Of a DNA stretch of 26,878 nucleotides, positions 4,153-25,669 are shown piece by piece. A model generated the notes under the pieces. The model was not told where the DNA came from, did not search any database, and worked only from the letters and a program-made list of their open reading frames with translations. The stretch covers positions 1-26,878 of the forward strand of contig JBHLPL010000012.1 of the NCBI GenBank assembly GCA_048939465.1, read 5' to 3'. The DNA comes from Promethearchaeota archaeon. Lineage in GTDB: Archaea; Asgardarchaeota; Odinarchaeia; Odinarchaeales; JBHLKK01. The stretch's first letter is position 1. Each line of letters begins with the position of its first letter. The position numbers and the translations under genes are program-made.

Positions 4153-4677
4153 ATGGCCAGCTATAGCTATCTTTTTAAGACAATTGTGGTTGGAGATGGA
4201 GCAGTTGGAAAGACATCCCTCACAGCTAGATTTAGTGAGGGACATTTCAGTGATCAGTATAAACTGACCGTTGGCGTATCATTTGCGATAAAGAGTATCG
4301 ATGTGGACGGAATAAAAGTAAAACTACAAATCTGGGATACGGGCGGTCAAGAACGATTCAGTGACTTGAGATCTCTCTATTACAAAGGTGCCAAAGGATG
4401 TCTACTTGTCTATGATGTAACAAGACGTGAAACATTCAGCCACATAGAGAATTGGTTTAATGAAGTTGTGTCTCAATGCAGGATTATTCCTATGGTTTTG
4501 GTTGCAAACAAGGTGGATTTGACCGATTCTCGAGCAGTAAGTCGTGAAGATGGAGAACAGCTAGCTTACAGCCGAGGATTCCCGTATTATGAGTCATCTG
4601 CAAAGTTTGGAGTGAATGTGATTGACTGTTTTTCATTGCTGGCCCGAATGATGGTGCGAAAAGTGCTCTCTGAATGA
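4153..4677 (+). CDS. Rab-like small GTPase (Ras superfamily, eukaryotic signature protein)
   Basis: G1 GDGAVGKT, G2 TVGVSF, G3 WDTGGQE, G4 NKVD, G5 ESSAK. RabF-like KLQIW, YYKGA, LVYDVT. No C-terminal prenylation cysteines. Confidence 0.95.
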   Translation: MASYSYLFKTIVVGDGAVGKTSLTARFSEGHFSDQYKLTVGVSFAIKSIDVDGIKVKLQIWDTGGQERFSDLRSLYYKGAKGCLLVYDVTRRETFSHIENWFNEVVSQCRIIPMVLVANKVDLTDSRAVSREDGEQLAYSRGFPYYESSAKFGVNVIDCFSLLARMMVRKVLSE

Positions 4678-12738: not shown

Positions 12739-13305
12739 ATGATTAATCCAGGTAAGGACCTAGAGAAGGCAATCGTGGATATTGTTAAAGGTTTGGCCTC
12801 GGTTGTAAAGAAACTGGATGATTCTACTAACCAGCTTACAACAAGAATGAGTGATTTTGAAAAGCGGGTTCTGTCAAGGTTAGAAAAACTCGAGAGTCAA
12901 TTTAGTGGACTGGAAAAGACTAAGGATCTTATCGATGAAATCAGCTTATTGGTACCAGTTCTACAAGTATCCAATCTTTTGAATAATGTAAAGGGAATGG
13001 TACAACCATCTAGACCTCTTACACCAATGAGGAAGGAAATAGTAGCACCTGCCCGAGTTCCAAGACCGGCGCCGACAAAAGACATTGAACCTACTCCCAT
13101 GCCCGCCCAAGAACCTCTGTTTGAAGAGCCAAAAGCGCTTTTTAAGGAAGAGGAATCAGCTCCAAGTTCCCCTTCTTTATCCGATGAGACGGAACCTGAT
13201 GAGAAGGGAGAACCTGAAGTGGTGGTTGGCGAGCGTGTCCCTTCTTACATTAAGAAGAAAGTAAAGCCAAAATCTATATGGGAAGGTATCCGTGACGAAG
13301 AATAA
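12739..13305 (+). CDS. Hypothetical protein: N-terminal coiled coil, Pro-rich/acidic disordered linker, short C-terminal motif
   Basis: Heptad-rich aa 1-90, then PSRPLTP...PARVPRPAPT...EEESAPSSP, ending KPKSIWEGIRDEE. SD GGAGG and AT-rich promoter upstream. Confidence 0.85.
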   Translation: MINPGKDLEKAIVDIVKGLASVVKKLDDSTNQLTTRMSDFEKRVLSRLEKLESQFSGLEKTKDLIDEISLLVPVLQVSNLLNNVKGMVQPSRPLTPMRKEIVAPARVPRPAPTKDIEPTPMPAQEPLFEEPKALFKEEESAPSSPSLSDETEPDEKGEPEVVVGERVPSYIKKKVKPKSIWEGIRDEE

Positions 13306-13326
13306 TTCGGAACGGGTTGAAGGTCT

Positions 13327-13734
13327 TTACTCAAGTTTCTCTAGGACTTCCGTAAGCTGTCTGCTCAGAGATGTTAGCTGAACAAGCCAGGCTGCACTCC
13401 TAGTCTTTTTGAGTAATTTGTCAAGGGTCTCAATCATTTCCTTTGGGGTTCTATTCTTGACTTCCGAAAGAATCGATTGCAGATCTGAATGGGCTTTGTT
13501 CTCGAGTTCTGAGACCTTGCCTATCATGCTTTTCCTTAAGTCCTTGTTATATTTCCCCAGTTGTTCTACCTGCTTTGCCATTGACTTAGTATTCTCATCG
13601 AAACTTTGCTTTAAGTCCTTGAGTGTCTTATTAAGTTCAGTCATGGACTCTATGATGTTATCTGTCCTTGAATAAATGTCATCTAATGCTCTGGTAACAA
13701 ATCTCAACACTTCTCCTGGAACATCTTCACTCAT
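13327..13734 (-). CDS. Hypothetical all-helical coiled-coil protein
   Basis: 135 aa amphipathic heptads, no TM segment; SD GGAGG on the minus strand; 20 nt downstream of 13755-14171. Confidence 0.85.
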   Translation of the reverse strand: MSEDVPGEVLRFVTRALDDIYSRTDNIIESMTELNKTLKDLKQSFDENTKSMAKQVEQLGKYNKDLRKSMIGKVSELENKAHSDLQSILSEVKNRTPKEMIETLDKLLKKTRSAAWLVQLTSLSRQLTEVLEKLE

Positions 13735-13754
13735 TATTTACGCCTCCAGGTTTC

Positions 13755-14171
13755 TTAATTGGTCCTGGCTTTTCGGGCGAGAAGTTTGAGCCCCTCTCTC
13801 ATTTTGTCGAGGTCAATTCCGCTCAGTACACTCTGACTCATTTCATCGATCTTGCCTATGGCTCGATCCAGTCTCTTTATATCAAAAGTATTCTTAATGC
13901 TGTCAATTCCTGCGTTGAGATTCCTAATCAGGAAATTGGTCTGTTCATCAAACCTCTGCGTTTCAGCCCCGATTGCCTCAGTGAGTTGATTAATCATGTT
14001 TCCAAGCTCTTCTGTGTTGCTCTCGAAAGCTTGAGCTAAATCCTCTCTTATGGTCTTCGTAACTTCATCGATGCTTCTGGCAACTTCATCGAGCTTATTC
14101 ATTAGGTTAGAGAACTTCTCTTCTATCTTCTTGCTCAAAACTTTATCACCATATTTAGAGGTGCCGAACAT
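13755..14171 (-). CDS. Hypothetical all-helical coiled-coil protein
   Basis: 138 aa amphipathic heptads, no TM segment; probably co-transcribed with 13327-13734. Confidence 0.85.
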   Translation of the reverse strand: MFGTSKYGDKVLSKKIEEKFSNLMNKLDEVARSIDEVTKTIREDLAQAFESNTEELGNMINQLTEAIGAETQRFDEQTNFLIRNLNAGIDSIKNTFDIKRLDRAIGKIDEMSQSVLSGIDLDKMREGLKLLARKARTN

Positions 14172-15142: not shown

Positions 15143-16054
15143 ATGATTAGAGACAATGGAGGAATGGTTTTGTCCTATGAGCAAATACCGATATTGGTTG
15201 ATCAACTAAGAAATGGGGTAAGAAGACTGCAGGAAACCCTTTTATCCGAACTAGATTTTGGACTGCAGCATTACAGTGAGGAACTAGATCGATGCAAGAC
15301 GAGAATACCTGTTCGCCTCAAAGGATTTGGCGGTATAGACATCTTTGCCAAAATAGTAGAACGGATAGTAGACGAGGAAATAATATCGACTATTGTAGAT
15401 TGTGAAGAAAGAATCTGGAACAACGTGAAGAGTATTCTATCGGGCGCAATAGGCGGTATTAACCAATCTGCCGAAGAGATTTCAGATCACGTTACAGCTC
15501 TTGTCAACCGAATTGAAGCTTCTCCTGAGATTTCCATGTTAAAGAGCAAATTGACTGAAAAAGAAGAGAGAATAACAGAACTCCATCAAGCAATTGAGGA
15601 ACGTAAGATCGAAGTGGAGACTTTGAAGGCGAAAGTAGCAGAGCTAGGGTCAGAACTTCACGCCAAGGAAAATGCGCTTGAAGAAATGAGAGATGAGCTA
15701 CCCAGAGATATCAAGAAACTTACAAGTACTGTCGAGAGCCAAAGAAATCAGATAGAGGTCCAAGAAGCTAATATACGTGAACTCTCTGAGAGAGCCATGG
15801 AAATGGAAAGAGAAATACACATCACGGGAGAACGCTGGAATCGTTTAGTAAACGTCGTTACGGATGATACACGCTATGGTTGGTTCTTCAAACTAACCGA
15901 TCAACATGGATGGACGGAATTGAAAAGGCTGATAGTTGGGCATCCTACAGTTTACGTTTTGGAACGCTGGGTCAGACCCTTTGAAGACAAGGGACTGGTA
16001 GAGCTCAAAGAAGAAGATGGAAAAGTAATGGTTAAGGCTTTAGAATTTGAGTAA
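15143..16054 (+). CDS. Hypothetical protein: helical N-terminus, long coiled coil, probable C-terminal winged helix
   Basis: Coiled coil at about aa 125-230 (LKSKLTEKEERITELHQAIEERKIEVETLKAKV...); C-terminal LERWVRPFEDKGLVELKEEDGKVMV looks like a wHTH recognition helix plus wing. Confidence 0.85.
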   Translation: MIRDNGGMVLSYEQIPILVDQLRNGVRRLQETLLSELDFGLQHYSEELDRCKTRIPVRLKGFGGIDIFAKIVERIVDEEIISTIVDCEERIWNNVKSILSGAIGGINQSAEEISDHVTALVNRIEASPEISMLKSKLTEKEERITELHQAIEERKIEVETLKAKVAELGSELHAKENALEEMRDELPRDIKKLTSTVESQRNQIEVQEANIRELSERAMEMEREIHITGERWNRLVNVVTDDTRYGWFFKLTDQHGWTELKRLIVGHPTVYVLERWVRPFEDKGLVELKEEDGKVMVKALEFE

Positions 16055-20024: not shown

Positions 20025-20142
20025 CTAGAGCGTAATTACCATTATCTGCCCATGCAATATTTATAAGATTTGTCGAAAGAACCAGTCGAAACGATAAACA
20101 TTAAAAGTCCGTTGCGCATAGTCAGTTTTGGAGGGCAAAATA

Positions 20143-20694
20143 ATGCAAATAATGGAATTCTTCATGTCTCTTGCAGATTTCAAAGGGCCAATCTTGATTA
20201 TTGCAGGTCTCATTTCTGCGATCAGTATATTTCAATGGCTGGCTGGACGTGATAAGGAAGAAGAATGGAAAACAACAATAAAATTGGCTGCCTTCATAGG
20301 CTTTTTTGTAGGGATAATATCCTTGATCGTTGGCGGGACCGTATGGAGTATGGGAGTTGCGGACTGGATAACGATTGCGCTTTTCATAATAGTCGGGTTG
20401 GCTTTGTGTTTGGGCCCGATTAAGAAACTGCCTCTGGCCGGGATAGCTGCACTAGCTATAGGCAGTTTGGTTGCTGCTTTCGTTTCAGGATTCTTTGGTT
20501 CAATTAAGATCGTGGCAGCTGTCTTCGTAATTATCTTCATATTAGTATTCGTATTTGCCAAAGCAATTGAAACCATATTGGATGGCATTGGTACCGTACT
20601 GAGCTTCCCGCTAGTATCAATTCCCTTAGGTCTGATCTGCATTGTTCAGGGAGTACTGCTACTCTTAGGGACTTCACTGGCTGCGCTCTTTTAA
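20143..20694 (+). CDS. Hypothetical polytopic membrane protein (about 6 TM); start probably ATG 20143
   Basis: Almost entirely hydrophobic helices; GGAGG SD precedes ATG 20143 (the track begins at TTG 20128). Confidence 0.85.
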   Translation: MQIMEFFMSLADFKGPILIIAGLISAISIFQWLAGRDKEEEWKTTIKLAAFIGFFVGIISLIVGGTVWSMGVADWITIALFIIVGLALCLGPIKKLPLAGIAALAIGSLVAAFVSGFFGSIKIVAAVFVIIFILVFVFAKAIETILDGIGTVLSFPLVSIPLGLICIVQGVLLLLGTSLAALF

Positions 20695-20920
20695 ATACAC
20701 TCTTTCTCTATTTCTTTAGCTTCTCTATTTCACGCAGACCCAAGCAATAGGATTTCTTCTCATTTCTGGATTTATATTGCCGAAAGCTTTAATGATAATT
20801 CAATCACTGAGAGTATCGCAACCTAAAGTCGAATGATACTAAAAAAGCTTAAATTACCATTCGCAATAAGTATATATTGGGTACTTGAGCTGAAACATAT
20901 GTGACTAACTATTAGCCGTA

Positions 20921-22408
20921 TTGAGAAGACCGCAAAAGAGGTATTCACTGTTGTTAGACGGACTCCAGAAGAGCAGTTTGGAGAAAACGGGAATTGATTT
21001 GCTAGACAATATGTTAGAAGGTGGTCTTCCCTCTTCAACTGCGATAGTGGTCGTAGGGGAGTCAGGAGTCGGAAAGTCTATAATGTGTCAGAAATTCCTT
21101 CATGAGGGACTGAAGAACGGTGATGGGGCGATATACGTAGCTTTGAGTGAATCCTCAAATACGATCGCCTCCACGATGAAACGTATGGGATGGGATATAA
21201 CCAATTATCTGGAAAATGAGCAGTTGATGTTTATCGAAAGTTACCCCTCGAAAACTCTCTTTGTTGAAGGCAATTACTTTGACCCAAGAAATCTCTCTCT
21301 CCTAAACCTGAAGATTGCTTCCGCATTTAGCTATATGAGAAAGTATGACAAAGTGCGTCTTGTGATAGATTCATTGTCCGATCTAATTGAGTATGACAGA
21401 GAAGGTAGATATATTGGGAATTTCCTCGATGAACTCATAGCAAATATTCATTTGGACAATGTCTCTTGTCTATGCACACTAACGCCCGAAGTCCAACCGG
21501 AGGAAGTGAGAGAACAAGTCCAAAGCGGCTTCGACGGTGAGATTGAGTTTAGGTTCACTGAGGTTGCAGGAAGCTACCAAAGGCAGGTTAGAGTAAAGAG
21601 AGTGAGAGATGAATATCGTAATTCAAAGTGGACAAGCTTTGCATTGACAAACAATGAGGGAATGGTTCCTCTGTCGGCGACGGGAGAAGGAAGCGAGCCA
21701 GAAATACTTGCTCTTGCGCCGCAAATATACGATGTTTACATAATCGACAGAAACGGCTATTGCTTATTTAATGCGAAAACCAAAGATGCTGAATATGAAG
21801 TGGACGTAGTCTCTGCTTTTTTGACTGCTGTATCAACCTTTGCAAAGCAGATGCTACCTAGCGAAGGCGAATTATCAGGAATCCGGAAGGGAAATCTACA
21901 GATACTGTGCGAATGGGGACAAAATATCTGTGTTACCGTAGTATGTACAAACGATACTGCAGAAGATGAAGTAAGATACAAGATGAGAATTCTCGCAGAT
22001 ACGTTTGAAGTGAGATTTAATCATTTACTTGAGTATTGGGACGGAGACCTCTCTGTGTTCAAACCAGTGGAGCGATTGGTAAGAAGATACTTCGGCTCAC
22101 ACCTCTCCCGGATAGATGATGGTGATGCTACTGAACCTCGAACACAACTATACTCCATCGATGATCTCGGCTCAAAAGCATATTGGGATTACTACAGGGA
22201 TTCGAAGGGCTTTGGACTATTTAGGAGAAAAAACCAAATTCCAATTAATGAAGTTGACAAGCTAATTGACTTAATATCTGCAGAGAGGCTGAGTGTTGAT
22301 GAATTGGAGAGAGCCATTGAAAAGGGTAGAATAAAATTAACAAAAGAACTAGCTATGAGGGCATTGATGAATCTGCATAGGAGAGAGATCATTTATTTGA
22401 TATCTTAA
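20921..22408 (+). CDS. KaiC/RAD55-like RecA-fold ATPase fused to a longin-type domain and a probable C-terminal winged helix
   Basis: KTGIDLLDNMLEGGLP, Walker A GESGVGKS, Walker B LVIDS. Then IYDVYIIDRNGYCLF...VSAFLTAVSTFAKQ...FEVRF...WDGDLSVF, the typical Asgard longin pattern. Start uncertain (TTG). Confidence 0.9.
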   Translation: MRRPQKRYSLLLDGLQKSSLEKTGIDLLDNMLEGGLPSSTAIVVVGESGVGKSIMCQKFLHEGLKNGDGAIYVALSESSNTIASTMKRMGWDITNYLENEQLMFIESYPSKTLFVEGNYFDPRNLSLLNLKIASAFSYMRKYDKVRLVIDSLSDLIEYDREGRYIGNFLDELIANIHLDNVSCLCTLTPEVQPEEVREQVQSGFDGEIEFRFTEVAGSYQRQVRVKRVRDEYRNSKWTSFALTNNEGMVPLSATGEGSEPEILALAPQIYDVYIIDRNGYCLFNAKTKDAEYEVDVVSAFLTAVSTFAKQMLPSEGELSGIRKGNLQILCEWGQNICVTVVCTNDTAEDEVRYKMRILADTFEVRFNHLLEYWDGDLSVFKPVERLVRRYFGSHLSRIDDGDATEPRTQLYSIDDLGSKAYWDYYRDSKGFGLFRRKNQIPINEVDKLIDLISAERLSVDELERAIEKGRIKLTKELAMRALMNLHRREIIYLIS

Positions 22409-22428
22409 TTTTGTAATCTGAAAAATAG

Positions 22429-23448
22429 GTGGGGTCGATGGCAAAAAGTATCAGAAACACCATTCTAAAGTTGAAAGTCATGGGAAAGGCTCTCTTCTCT
22501 GACATAAGATCCTTAGATAAAGGAACCCGTCAGCTGAGCGAGAGATTACTGACACAGATCGCCATAAAGGAAGGCTATCCGAGCCTGCTTATGAGCCCAC
22601 TAACACTCGAACAGATTATCGAACAGATGAGATACAAGAATACAGACCTTGCTGCTGATTTTATGAAGGTCCTAGTTGAAATTGGTGTAATTCGAGAGAA
22701 TGGTGGAGTATATGTATGGAAAGGAAAGAAGATTAAGATAGGAAAACATGAGCGAAGACTGCAGAAAATAGGGTTAGCTTTTGCCAGAATCTCGGAGGTA
22801 TTCTCCACATATATGCCATATGCATTACGAGGACACGGAAAAACACGCGAGTTTACTAGAGAGCTGCTACTTGCTATTTGGGATAGTTTATATTCAAGTG
22901 AATTCTACAAATTTGCAAGAGGACTTGTGATCGACTGGGCAAGACTCCCTAAGTATCAAACGATCCTTGACATAGGGTGTGGTACTGGCTGGAGCACAAT
23001 TAACATAATACAAAAGACCAATGCTGAAAAGGTATTTGCAGTAGATCGTTCACAGAAAGCAATTGATATTGCGAAAGAGAACATCAACATCACAGGATAC
23101 GATGACAGAGTTGAGTTCATCGTTTGTAATATTTCGAAGAAGCCTCCTACTGAAAAAGAGGTAGACGGTGCATTCTCTTCATTGTTTTTCCACTGGCTCA
23201 ATCGAGACGAGATTGTCCAGGCCCTTAAAAATATTAGAGCCTCATTGAAGCCTGGAGCTATTTTCTGTGGATTACAGCCCTTAAACAAGAGAACTGATAG
23301 AATGGCTTATTTTGATGTTTTGTTTCGTGCCTCCATTGACTTTAAAGGGTATCCTCAGAGGGATTTCTTTATTGAAGCCTTCAAAAATTCCAATTTCGAA
23401 GATCTGAGTATATGGTCGAACGGAATTTTTTCATGCAAGGCAATCTAA
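22429..23448 (+). CDS. Class I SAM-dependent methyltransferase with N-terminal helical/wHTH domain; start possibly ATG 22438
   Basis: ILDIGCGTG, FAVDRS, FFHW, LKPGA; 20 nt downstream of the KaiC-longin gene. Confidence 0.9.
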   Translation: MGSMAKSIRNTILKLKVMGKALFSDIRSLDKGTRQLSERLLTQIAIKEGYPSLLMSPLTLEQIIEQMRYKNTDLAADFMKVLVEIGVIRENGGVYVWKGKKIKIGKHERRLQKIGLAFARISEVFSTYMPYALRGHGKTREFTRELLLAIWDSLYSSEFYKFARGLVIDWARLPKYQTILDIGCGTGWSTINIIQKTNAEKVFAVDRSQKAIDIAKENINITGYDDRVEFIVCNISKKPPTEKEVDGAFSSLFFHWLNRDEIVQALKNIRASLKPGAIFCGLQPLNKRTDRMAYFDVLFRASIDFKGYPQRDFFIEAFKNSNFEDLSIWSNGIFSCKAI

Positions 23449-24749
23449 GAGACCTCCTCACCAACGTTGGAAATTATATGTCTAGTTCTTGCAGAAGGGG
23501 TTTCCTTTATCTTTTCTGTAAATCGGACCTTTAAATCCGCCCCTTTGAAGAGCTCTCCACAAATCCTCTCAACTTTTTCGGCAGTTCTATCGCTGAAATC
23601 CTTACCTTTTACTAAATACACTTCTATTTTATCTCTTTGTGGTTGTATTACTTGATAGTTCTCGAGCTGCAGGATGTCTCCTAATTCTCCAATAACTATT
23701 TGTGGATAAACCAGCTCCCCGGCAGGGAGTCTGATAATATCCTCAGCTCTCCCCTCTATAACATCAATTAAAGGAAATGTTCTGCCACAGCTGCATTCGT
23801 TGCCACCAGCTCTGACGATGTCCCGTGTATCATATCTGATTAGTGGCATCGCCTCTCTCATCAATGGCGTCAGAATAAGCCGCCCTCTCTCACCTTCAGC
23901 TACCGGTTCATTATTTTTGTCTACCACTTCCATGATAGCTGTGTCGATATTCGTATGAAGTCCCATATGTTCAGAACATTCATATCCAAAAACATTAATC
24001 TCGGTTATTCCGTATGCATCAAAGACTTCAGCATTCAATGATTCTTCAATTCCTCTTCTTATTTTATCATTAAGAATCTCAGAGCCTGTCACTACCGTTC
24101 TAAGATGCGGGAATTCCAAATCATGGTCGGCCATGTACTGTCCTATTGAATATGCCACTGATGGATATACACTTAGTAATGTGGGATCGTATTTCAGAAG
24201 CTCTTCAACTATTTCGGGCAAGGGCTTTTTTATTGAAATCATCTTTACTTTGGCAAGGAGTTTGACGATTCCGCCAAAGAGCGTTTTTACCAAGGTCGCT
24301 CCAATAAAAGGCCCAATCATGAGCAATTGAGCTACCCTATCTTTCAAAGTTCTAAGACCTGCTGCTTCTGACACTCTTGAAGCTGTTGCTGCAACAATCG
24401 CTATGTCGTTTTCTGTGAAAAAGATCTCTACGGGCTCCCCAGTACTTCCTGAAGTGGTTACTCTGATTAATTTCGTATCTTTGACTTCTTTTGAAATCAT
24501 ATTGTTATACCTTAACGTACTTTTCTTGGTCAGAGGCAGTTTTCGTAAATCCTCTTTCGTGTTTATGTCATCTGGCTTGAGGCCAAGTGAGTCGAATAAT
24601 CGATGATAGTATTCAGTGTTTTCGTAGGCTATATGAACCTCTTTTTTCAATTCCTTCAACTGCAGTTTCTCGAGTTCATCCATTTTCTTGTACGGGTTTT
24701 TTCTCAACTTGCGCCTTGCTCTAAGAAGTTTGTATAACATGCCCCCCAC
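23445..24749 (-). CDS. Phenylacetate-CoA ligase-family (PaaK-like) adenylate-forming enzyme
   Basis: TTSGSTGEP P-loop, DAYGITE, RYDTRD, CSCGRTFP, EGRAED. The substrate cannot be inferred. Confidence 0.9.
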   Translation of the reverse strand: MGGMLYKLLRARRKLRKNPYKKMDELEKLQLKELKKEVHIAYENTEYYHRLFDSLGLKPDDINTKEDLRKLPLTKKSTLRYNNMISKEVKDTKLIRVTTSGSTGEPVEIFFTENDIAIVAATASRVSEAAGLRTLKDRVAQLLMIGPFIGATLVKTLFGGIVKLLAKVKMISIKKPLPEIVEELLKYDPTLLSVYPSVAYSIGQYMADHDLEFPHLRTVVTGSEILNDKIRRGIEESLNAEVFDAYGITEINVFGYECSEHMGLHTNIDTAIMEVVDKNNEPVAEGERGRLILTPLMREAMPLIRYDTRDIVRAGGNECSCGRTFPLIDVIEGRAEDIIRLPAGELVYPQIVIGELGDILQLENYQVIQPQRDKIEVYLVKGKDFSDRTAEKVERICGELFKGADLKVRFTEKIKETPSARTRHIISNVGEEVS

Positions 24750-24877: not shown

Positions 24878-25350
24878 TTAGGCACAGGCAGCTTCTCCAA
24901 TTCTTGAGATCATGTGCCATCTCCTAGCAGAGGGAGTTTCTGGCATCTTCTCTGTGAAGTCAATATTCACATTTGTGCCCTTAAAAACGTCTCTGCGAAA
25001 TTTCTCAACTTTCTTACCGCCCCCATCAATGAAATATCTACTTCACTGTCCTTCTCTATGGTGCCCATTTGAGGCTTTACGCCTCGATAATTCCTAAGCC
25101 CCTTAATTTCGCCCCACTCACCAGTTGAAGTTCGTGGATGGATGAAACTTCCATCGGGGGCTTAATCGCTTCCTCAACTCGCCCCCCCATGATATCAATT
25201 GAAGGAAAGGTTCTTCCGCAGTTGCATTCATTTCCACCGATTCTGACAATGACGTATGTCAGATCTGATTAACTGCATTGCCTCTCTCGAAGACAGTGTT
25301 AAAATAAGTTTTCTTCTCCCCCCTTCAGATATTGGCCTATGTTAAATATC
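24878..25350 (-). pseudogene. Degraded 3' fragment of a paralogue of the adjacent PaaK-like gene
   Basis: Minus-strand fragments KLILTLSSREAMQLIR, VRIGGNECNCGRTFPSIDIMGGRVEE, PDGSFIHP and KKVEKF...FKGTNVNIDFTEKMPETPSARRWHMISRIGE* are colinear with aa ~295-434 of 23445-24749, with frameshifts and a stop. Confidence 0.85.
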
Positions 25351-25653
25351 GGCTGGAGATCCCGTCCGTAGGGGTGGGGAGGAAAGCCGACCTCCCGCAA
25401 CATTTGAGTTTTTAAATCCTGATGAAGACTAAATATGGGTGGAGCATCAGGAAAGACAATCGTCGTTGCTGTTAAATCGGCTGTGGTGCGGGATCATTCT
25501 CAAGGTCAAGGTCTCAACCTCTTTTCCCAGTCTACCAGGCCCTGAGTCTCTGTAAACAGGCTCTTTCGTCCGGGTGATGAGGTTTTGAGTGGTGCGGTGC
25601 ACTATACTCGGCCTCTGATGGAAAGCTCCCTGCGATAGCTGGGAGTAGTTTAC
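25351..25653 (+). mobile_element. E4: non-autonomous IS200/IS605-derived mini-element (left boundary approximate) abutting the PaaK pseudogene
   Basis: Left hairpin TCCCGTCC-GTAG-GGGTGGGG at 25360-25379, TTTTTAAAT at 25409-25417, right end CTCCCTGC-GATA-GCTGGGAG-TAGTTTAC at 25626-25653. Confidence 0.72.
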
Positions 25654-25669
25654 AGCTCCCCCTCTCGTT
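25440..25669 (+). ncRNA. Candidate omegaRNA-like scaffold plus guide within E4 (boundaries approximate)
   Basis: Hairpin GAGTCT-CTGTAAAC-AGGCTC displays GTAAAC (25552-25557), complementary to terminal GTTTAC, about 101 nt from the end (about 99 in E3). Confidence 0.42.

Follow-up and report, generated by a model that had tools for sequence, protein, structure and literature searches.

A conserved longin–helix-turn-helix and methyltransferase gene pair in Asgard archaea, joined in one genus to a degenerate KaiC-type ATPase domain

The 26,878-nucleotide stretch analysed here (the window) is an entire contig (C10) of the 1.96-Mb genome, 91% complete, of an Asgard archaeon (G000) whose family is sister to Odinarchaeum. 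On its forward strand, a gene encoding a KaiC/RAD55-type ATPase domain, then a longin domain and then a helix-turn-helix (HTH) tail, in a single reading frame, is followed by a gene for a class I methyltransferase. We confirmed the fusion, and we observed that it is a novelty of one genus, less important than the pairing of a longin-HTH gene with a methyltransferase gene. This pair is apparently undescribed: our literature searches, of incomplete coverage, returned no description of a KaiC and longin fusion or of an Asgard longin/methyltransferase pair. With a probability of about 0.5, we propose that the longin-HTH protein is a scaffold carrying a methyltransferase that would bind S-adenosylmethionine (SAM), and that the fusion adds to it a domain that would bind ATP and dock on KaiC; in this proposal both the direction of regulation and the substrate are presumptive.

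The pair was followed through 400 Asgard genomes, with families numbered as GTDB families (f1, f2 and so on). The two genes lie side by side on the same strand in 13 genomes, which represent seven families (f1, f2, f3, f10, f26, f27 and f28) and in two metagenome lineages. In the unfused form, a stand-alone longin-HTH gene of 230-250 aa lies directly upstream of a homologous methyltransferase gene; this form was found in four genomes of the Odinarchaeum family, in G014, G007 and G018, in four Helarchaeota-type genomes (with a gap of 1.3 kb in one of them) and in the two metagenome lineages. The longin-HTH protein of G003, which belongs to the same order as the source genome, is OdinLCB4_000555 of Ca. 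Odinarchaeum yellowstonii. A strong match to the tail (E ≤ 1e-27) is present in 14 of the 400 genomes and all 14 also have the methyltransferase (E ≤ 3e-53); in one, G162, the two genes are on separate contigs. A fifteenth genome with the methyltransferase, G028, has a weaker tail match elsewhere in the genome. The conservation of architecture and operon on which the initial annotation depended is found for the pair, across seven families, and not for the three-domain fusion, confined to one genus.

Both fusion genomes of the census, G000 and G001, carry in addition a second, unfused pair (G000:C20:5231-7040, L040; G001:C34, L041). Its methyltransferase has GCRTG as motif I and a C-terminal zinc ribbon like the Odinarchaeum copies, and groups with the Odinarchaeum enzymes in the methyltransferase tree (85/92). 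Distinct from it is the copy in the fusion pair, which joins G014 weakly in both trees.

The downstream open reading frame (22429-23448, forward strand, 339 aa) likely starts at ATG 22438, which is preceded by a conserved GGTG; the methyltransferase then has 336 aa (22438-23448) and the gap to the fusion gene is 29 nt, not 20 nt as first annotated. The protein matches PF13649 (E 7e-19), its model has a predicted local distance difference test score (pLDDT) of 87, and it has the class I SAM core, with G180-G182-G184 in motif I (DIGCGTG), D203 after strand 2, and H252-W253. Over the whole chain, the best structural matches are the CurJ C-methyltransferase (Z 26.1, root-mean-square deviation (rmsd) 3.5, 316 residues aligned), AprA, DszA and AmxMT1 (Z 24.5), and then O-methyltransferases. 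The N-terminal region first described as an HTH corresponds to the helical lid/dimerisation subdomain of O-methyltransferases and of the C-methyltransferases of polyketide synthases (PKS); since it is an ordinary lid, there is no indication of DNA binding by the methyltransferase. A related-locus search with this protein gave a single unrelated bacterial match.

In a family of 20 copies, the middle glycine of GxGxG is replaced in 15, by K or R in 12; motif I is canonical in the three fusion copies and in G014. The acidic ribose-binding residue after strand 2 is retained in 18 of the 20, and the histidine after strand 4 (H252 here) is replaced in eight. With respect to the His-Glu dyad of PKS C-methyltransferases and AmxMT1, H252 is present in the fusion-pair enzyme and a glutamine stands at the end of strand 5. 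Judged on these motifs, the pattern suits a family in which cofactor and partner binding are better preserved than any single chemistry. It also bears on a metabolic explanation, in which the longin-HTH protein would be the activator or substrate-presenting subunit (in a Trm112-like or carrier-like role) of a small-molecule or lipid methyltransferase that works with an adenylate-forming ligase encoded nearby, the KaiC domain merely tuning it. Such a holoenzyme would account for the best full-length structures, which are methyltransferases of carrier-bound acyl substrates (CurJ, AmxMT1; PMC9821293), for the canonical SAM motif and H252 of the fusion-pair enzyme, for the PaaK-like ligase beside the fusion pair and for the GH3-like ligase upstream of the Odinarchaeum pair, and it is fully compatible with the interface described below. 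The two ligases, however, belong to different families and are missing at the loci of the other five families, and a motif I altered in 15 of 20 copies together with a post-strand-4 histidine replaced in 8 of 20 would be odd for one conserved reaction. We regard this explanation as unlikely, while still giving it some weight.

The scaffold proposal predicts a direct contact between the two products. When the C-terminal half of the fusion was co-folded with the methyltransferase by ESMFold2, the score was 0.61, versus 0.01 for the best of three controls; at least 77% of the contacts agree between runs and the partner has a pLDDT of at least 82. Of 80 solved complexes, 58 reach the mark applied, as do 2 of 110 mismatched pairs; with our own alignments these counts hold only roughly. 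The confident contacts involve the tail (aa 416-437 and 484-490), not the longin domain, and residues 137-155, W185 and 207-219 of the methyltransferase, by the SAM loop. Tail residues at this interface are better conserved than other tail positions (0.60 vs 0.42, permutation p 0.002), and the tail interface is eroded in the paralogs that lie next to a KaiC gene instead of a methyltransferase gene. On the other side, the family shows no variation at D149, W185 and N215, the last two of which differ in the three outgroup enzymes. The model supports a direct binding of the two proteins via the HTH tail. With a conserved gene pair and a modelled interface, the tie between fusion and methyltransferase is stronger than the initial annotation had proposed.

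The tail (aa 404-495; 22130-22405, forward strand), whose predicted contact surface for the methyltransferase consists of aa 416-437 and 484-490, was first called wHTH-like, that is, a winged HTH. Its model is a three-helix HTH which ends after a single terminal strand, without a full wing, and its sequence matches to MarR/Lrs14/ArsR-type HTHs are weak and below thresholds (E 0.02-0.05 for MarR/Lrs14); the model agrees with an HTH-like helical domain, and "wHTH-like" is a fair label but not a proven one. A transcription factor, whose tail would bind DNA under the control of the methyltransferase or of the KaiC domain, would draw on these weak matches and on the annotation of one homolog as MarR family. 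But the matches stay below thresholds, the wing is incomplete in the model, and the last helix has a conserved end that the modelled contact with the methyltransferase buries; we hold this to be very unlikely.

The middle domain (aa 268-395; 21722-22105, forward strand) is 91% identical among the three fusions known to us. It was modelled within the C-terminal half of the fusion only, folded with 25 homologs (pLDDT 77.6), and has the longin topology b-b-a-b-b-b-a-a as defined in PMC10933270, with a five-stranded sheet, one helix on one face and two C-terminal helices on the opposite face; the N-terminal helix of the roadblock type is lacking. The best matches are Sec22b (Z 13.4, rmsd 2.7, 121 residues aligned), synbindin (12.7) and VAMP7 (12.4), and roadblocks score lower (MglB 9.7, LAMTOR 8.5); Foldseek returned AP sigma/mu and zeta-COP. 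In the model the middle domain is a longin, as the initial annotation had it, and the structural comparison that could have contradicted this assignment upheld it. Longins of the same type occur in Asgard proteins in 5243 clusters at 50% identity, with highly varied architectures, so the fold alone says little on function; domain shuffling of Asgard longin and roadblock proteins has been published (10.1101/2020.10.19.343400), and longins can also work without GTPases (PMC10933270).

The central claim of the initial annotation was that of a hybrid circuit, in which KaiC would switch a longin platform that has guanine nucleotide exchange or GTPase-activating function towards a small GTPase, methylation perhaps being its input or output. 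The longin fold is true, and such a circuit is not exclusive of the scaffold proposal. About a dozen Rab-like GTPases are encoded in the source genome, and one of them, in the window at 4153-4677 (PF00071, E 1e-56), 16 kb from the fusion gene, matches with E 4e-60 the Rab that, in family f3, is encoded two genes before the pair. We also observed a distant sister of the lid-type methyltransferase in an operon with roadblock-like, Rab-like GTPase and zinc-finger genes (G000:C12:3515-6505, L147), and sister methyltransferases adjoin GTPase genes in G127, G132 and G095. However, in the six other families the pair has no GTPase gene beside it, and no GTPase is a conserved neighbour that would name a partner for a longin dimer acting on its cognate GTPase, as in TRAPP, Mon1-Ccz1, GATOR1 and FLCN-FNIP. 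NPRL2 and FLCN have their arginine finger in the loop between longin strands 4 and 5; no conserved arginine was seen in that loop here. A search with PF06218 (NPR2) gave no match and is uninformative, the controls being equally silent. Added to this, the fold is spread over thousands of clusters and can act without GTPases. A GTPase link of the module may exist, but support for it is indirect and comes from the distant sister methyltransferases only; the circuit as originally drawn is not supported, and we rate it as quite unlikely.

The fusion gene itself was examined at three loci, the source, one GenBank assembly and one Logan contig. Residues are numbered from position 20921, the beginning of the 495-aa open reading frame (20921-22408, forward strand). 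The start is likely at TTG 20951, which gives a protein of 485 aa (20951-22408): a purine-rich AAAAGAGG directly 5' of this TTG is kept at all three loci in the DNA alignment, and the ribosome-binding-like motif with the probable start (20931-20953, forward strand) is conserved and agrees with the called start of the homolog P0003. Upstream, a putative archaeal promoter region (20841-20878, forward strand), consisting of an A-run and TTAAAT followed by TATATATT, is invariant at the three loci while its flanks have diverged. The two full-length relatives have 79-80% identity, and in both the methyltransferase gene comes next. Since each of three independent assemblies carries it as a single open frame, an assembly or frameshift artefact is ruled out. 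The ratio of nonsynonymous to synonymous substitution rates (dN/dS) is below 0.25 in every domain, about 0.09-0.10 in the ATPase, 0.02-0.03 in the longin and 0.16-0.24 in the tail, indicating purifying selection throughout.

Only G000 and G001, two of the 400 genomes and members of one genus, have matches spanning the whole query, which rules out a widespread KaiC-longin-HTH family; G001 carries the NCBI label "Ca. Hodarchaeota", and we used the genome-based placement instead. A third genome of the genus, G002, has neither a fusion match nor the transmembrane (TM) protein gene that neighbours the fusion; since it is 82% complete and this neighbour is also gone, the absence means little. Among the best 150 longin representatives, an N-terminal KaiC domain is found in this protein alone, and no longer form of the fusion was found, which is weak evidence. 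ESM Atlas returned only clusters of generic KaiC or longin type. One 1570-bp ENA contig (L131, protein P0075) joins a molybdopterin-binding N-terminus to an incomplete longin-HTH belonging to the clade of the fusions, after which the methyltransferase gene begins; it is likely an assembly chimera and was set aside.

The N-terminal domain (aa 22-247; 20984-21661, forward strand) is of the KaiC/RAD55 RecA-fold type, with a PF06745 match over the same residues (E 4.6e-35, 121.5 bits against a cut-off of 26.6, profile positions 2-223 of 231). The motifs and both open reading frames quoted by the initial annotation are all present in the sequence, namely GESGVGKS (aa 46-53), LSES (75-78), LVIDS (147-151) and RQVRVKRVRD (221-230). 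Walker A (G46-S53, including K52 and S53) and D150 of Walker B are intact in all three fusions, and the EE pair is S76-E77, its first glutamate being replaced by Ser76. This position is equivalent to E318, the catalytic glutamate of KaiC (PMC9171630); in canonical active KaiC-like ATPases the acidic pair includes this glutamate (E77/E318). Canonical archaeal KaiC-like proteins also have TE, EEF and KMRG-x-H signatures, which the fusion has replaced by TLT, by QSG or QSS, and by RxR or RxK without G or H; the basic pair at the finger position is retained as R227/R229. We treat TE solely as a family signature, no paper with a catalytic role for KaiC E183 having been found. Scores are under every named NCBIfam KaiC/ArlH cut-off (circadian KaiC 78.8 bits vs 408; ArlH 85 vs 215). 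The protein has one ATPase domain only, not the two tandem domains with CII phosphosites of circadian KaiC; no kaiA/B-like gene was seen in the window, and no archaellum genes adjoin the fusion locus. In the tree this domain is excluded from the clade of canonical KaiC proteins (91/95), although branches are long, and its closest relatives in the 400 genomes are stand-alone proteins with about 30% identity. These characters agree with the partial degeneracy that the initial annotation had suspected. The ATPase of the fusion is likely, judging from its motifs, to bind ATP with weak or absent hydrolysis, which fits the "iKaiC" class.

Such a domain could have reached the longin by chance, if a stand-alone degenerate KaiC gene joined the first gene of the pair in one genus and the domains stayed independent. 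KaiC fusions of narrow spread are frequent in archaea (PMC5847659); this one is limited to a single genus, and no ortholog of its KaiC domain was found beside other longin-HTH/methyltransferase pairs. Descent of the domain from the KaiC of another longin operon of the order is unsupported as well, since that protein belongs to another clade in the tree, with the caveat of long branches. But frame and purifying selection are kept in three species-level lineages, and KaiC-longin links arose in at least three ways. In all seven genomes of the order, a longin-HTH paralog, a small uDENN-like protein and a canonical KaiC share an operon (G000:C78:3508-5814, L039; L094-L099), and in Atabeyarchaeia immunoglobulin (Ig)-domain proteins end in a longin followed by a degenerate KaiC, an order reversed relative to the fusion. 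As these links recur, a purely accidental fusion is less likely, and we rate it as improbable; the recurrence also bears out the association of KaiC signalling with longins that the initial annotation had put forward.

Several further observations were made on these proteins. The source genome has three canonical KaiC proteins (on contigs C78, C64 and C104); a second uDENN-like and KaiC pair is found on C64, and a profile comparison with the uDENN-like protein of the operon gave nothing. Of the large Ig-longin-degenerate KaiC proteins P0189 (WXG43812.1), P0103 and P0141 (L136), one is from Atabeyarchaeia; the gene of P0141 is convergent to a canonical KaiC gene. In P0014-P0037, which are Nitrososphaera-type proteins, a class 3 nucleotide cyclase is attached to a degenerate KaiC domain, so that here too an output domain is combined with a degenerate KaiC.

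We propose the following mechanism for the scaffold. Its core would be a two-protein module of several Asgard lineages, in which a longin-HTH adaptor of about 230 aa and a class I methyltransferase of the lid type are made from one transcript and bind each other; one genus of the Odinarchaeum order would have extended a second copy of this pair with an N-terminal degenerate KaiC domain. The HTH tail is predicted to dock on the methyltransferase beside the SAM-binding loop; the methyltransferase, which has the motifs for it, would bind SAM or S-adenosylhomocysteine (SAH), and SAM occupancy and partner binding may influence each other. The fusion-copy enzyme would then be a regulated enzyme, and the copies with an altered motif I probably SAM/SAH sensors. 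The longin would be left free to pair with another longin or roadblock protein, following the known habit of the fold. Finally, the KaiC domain, whose motifs point to Mg-ATP binding with poor or no hydrolysis, may oligomerise or dock on a canonical KaiC ring, linking the complex to the KaiC network and to the adenylate state. The fusion would be a lineage-specific rewiring of the module and not its ancestral form.

Several points weigh against this proposal. All claims on function are computational. Because the families are related, the co-occurrence in 14 of 14 genomes amounts to about seven observations, and G014 has on contig C162 (L137:2403-3128) a longin-HTH paralog with the tail and no methyltransferase neighbour. 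The methyltransferase side of the interface is overall no better conserved than the remainder (0.49 vs 0.48, p 0.35); the co-fold result may in part stem from solved methyltransferase complexes that the predictor had learned, and as it drew on the same alignments, the test of conservation is to some extent circular. Finally, ArlH variants that carry glutamine in place of the catalytic residue retain autophosphorylation (10.1101/2021.03.19.436134); the loss of the glutamate in the fusion is therefore no proof of a dead enzyme.

The genes that flank the fusion and its methyltransferase in the window are not conserved neighbours, and both were ruled out as core parts. Upstream, a hydrophobic gene with six TM segments (20128-20694, forward strand) has no Pfam match and is syntenic in the genus only. 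A conserved T-rich tract (20702-20715) lies 3' of it, a conserved TATA-like region precedes the fusion, and its Odinarchaeum ortholog is not linked to the pair, so it is probably a separate unit outside the operon. Downstream, a PaaK-like adenylate-forming ligase gene (23445-24749, reverse strand) is convergent and likewise syntenic in the genus only. Upstream of this intact ligase gene, positions 24892-25336 share 71% identity with the 3' part where the relative's PaaK-like gene ends, probably the remnant of a second copy, and are followed by a repeat (about 25340-25655) present on seven other contigs. Further away, the regions 12739-14171 and 15143-16054 encode several proteins that resemble coiled coils and belong to no known family; their genes are syntenic in G001. 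Around the pair in other lineages, a GH3-family ligase gene is immediately upstream and uvrABC downstream in the four Odinarchaeum-family genomes (L034:7017-8591, L035-L037), and in three Helarchaeota-type genomes (L068, L069 and L071) the gene of a membrane-anchored FLDERG (uDENN-like) protein of about 325 aa is divergent from the pair.

Taken as a whole, the observation behind the initial annotation stands, and the reading put on it stands only in part. Hardly any partners are known for the dozens of longin proteins that Asgard genomes encode, and gene layout seldom names such partners (PMC10933270). Here, one orphan Asgard longin family gains a named, conserved and modelled partner, a methyltransferase and not a GTPase, and in the KaiC fusion nature has, on a small scale, made the experiment of connecting this module with the KaiC network of archaea.

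The fusion can be compared with several known systems. "iKaiC" fusions of the archaeal KaiC/RAD55 family are described in a passage of PMC5847659 that cites Makarova, Galperin and Koonin 2017. With these and with ArlH/FlaH, the fusion shares a single RecA-fold domain, kept Walker motifs, eroded catalytic signatures and a narrow, lineage-specific fusion; it differs in that its partner is a longin-HTH adaptor, in scoring below the NCBIfam KaiC/ArlH cut-offs and in lacking both a second ATPase domain and the phosphosites of the clock. With the published Asgard longin and roadblock proteins (10.1101/2020.10.19.343400; PMC10933270) it has in common the longin fold, a lineage-specific multidomain fusion and links to prokaryotic signalling domains, whereas KaiC and methyltransferases are unmentioned in the main texts of both papers.

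For the methyltransferase, the PKS C-methyltransferases (CurJ, AprA MT2, DszA), AmxMT1 (8hd2) and plant-type O-methyltransferases have the same helical lid and class I core, with about 310 residues aligned at Z 23-26, but identity is 13-19%, and here the enzyme stands alone with a longin partner and has no carrier protein or PKS nearby. Trm112-methyltransferase holoenzymes also place a small partner on a class I methyltransferase, and the archaeal 6f5z is among the core matches; in contrast, the longin-HTH partner is predicted to bind through helices and has not the Trm112 fold.

The closest likeness of logic is to SAMTOR with GATOR1-KICSTOR (PMC10883374) and to fly Unmet (PMC10245982). SAMTOR has an altered GxGxG and is bound by its partner near the SAM site (PMC10883374); the class I fold, the N-terminal helical domain, the altered GxGxG, the position of the partner and the attachment of a methyltransferase to a longin-containing complex have counterparts in the Asgard pair, the last two as predicted. 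Different are the absence of a Bmt2/SAMTOR or NPR2 sequence signal (a PF11968 search gave no match, with controls likewise silent, and SAMTOR is outside the top 50 structural matches), the canonical motif in the fusion copy and the lack of a Rag GTPase/TOR link. The likeness is one of analogy, not orthology. By this analogy the pair might be an Asgard SAM/SAH sensor on a longin scaffold, SAMTOR/GATOR1-like in working and not in descent, to which KaiC would add ATP sensing and which would control a small GTPase; in this full form the idea seems to us quite unlikely. If SAM does control the complex, the design of a methyltransferase serving as nutrient sensor on a longin scaffold would exist in archaea too.

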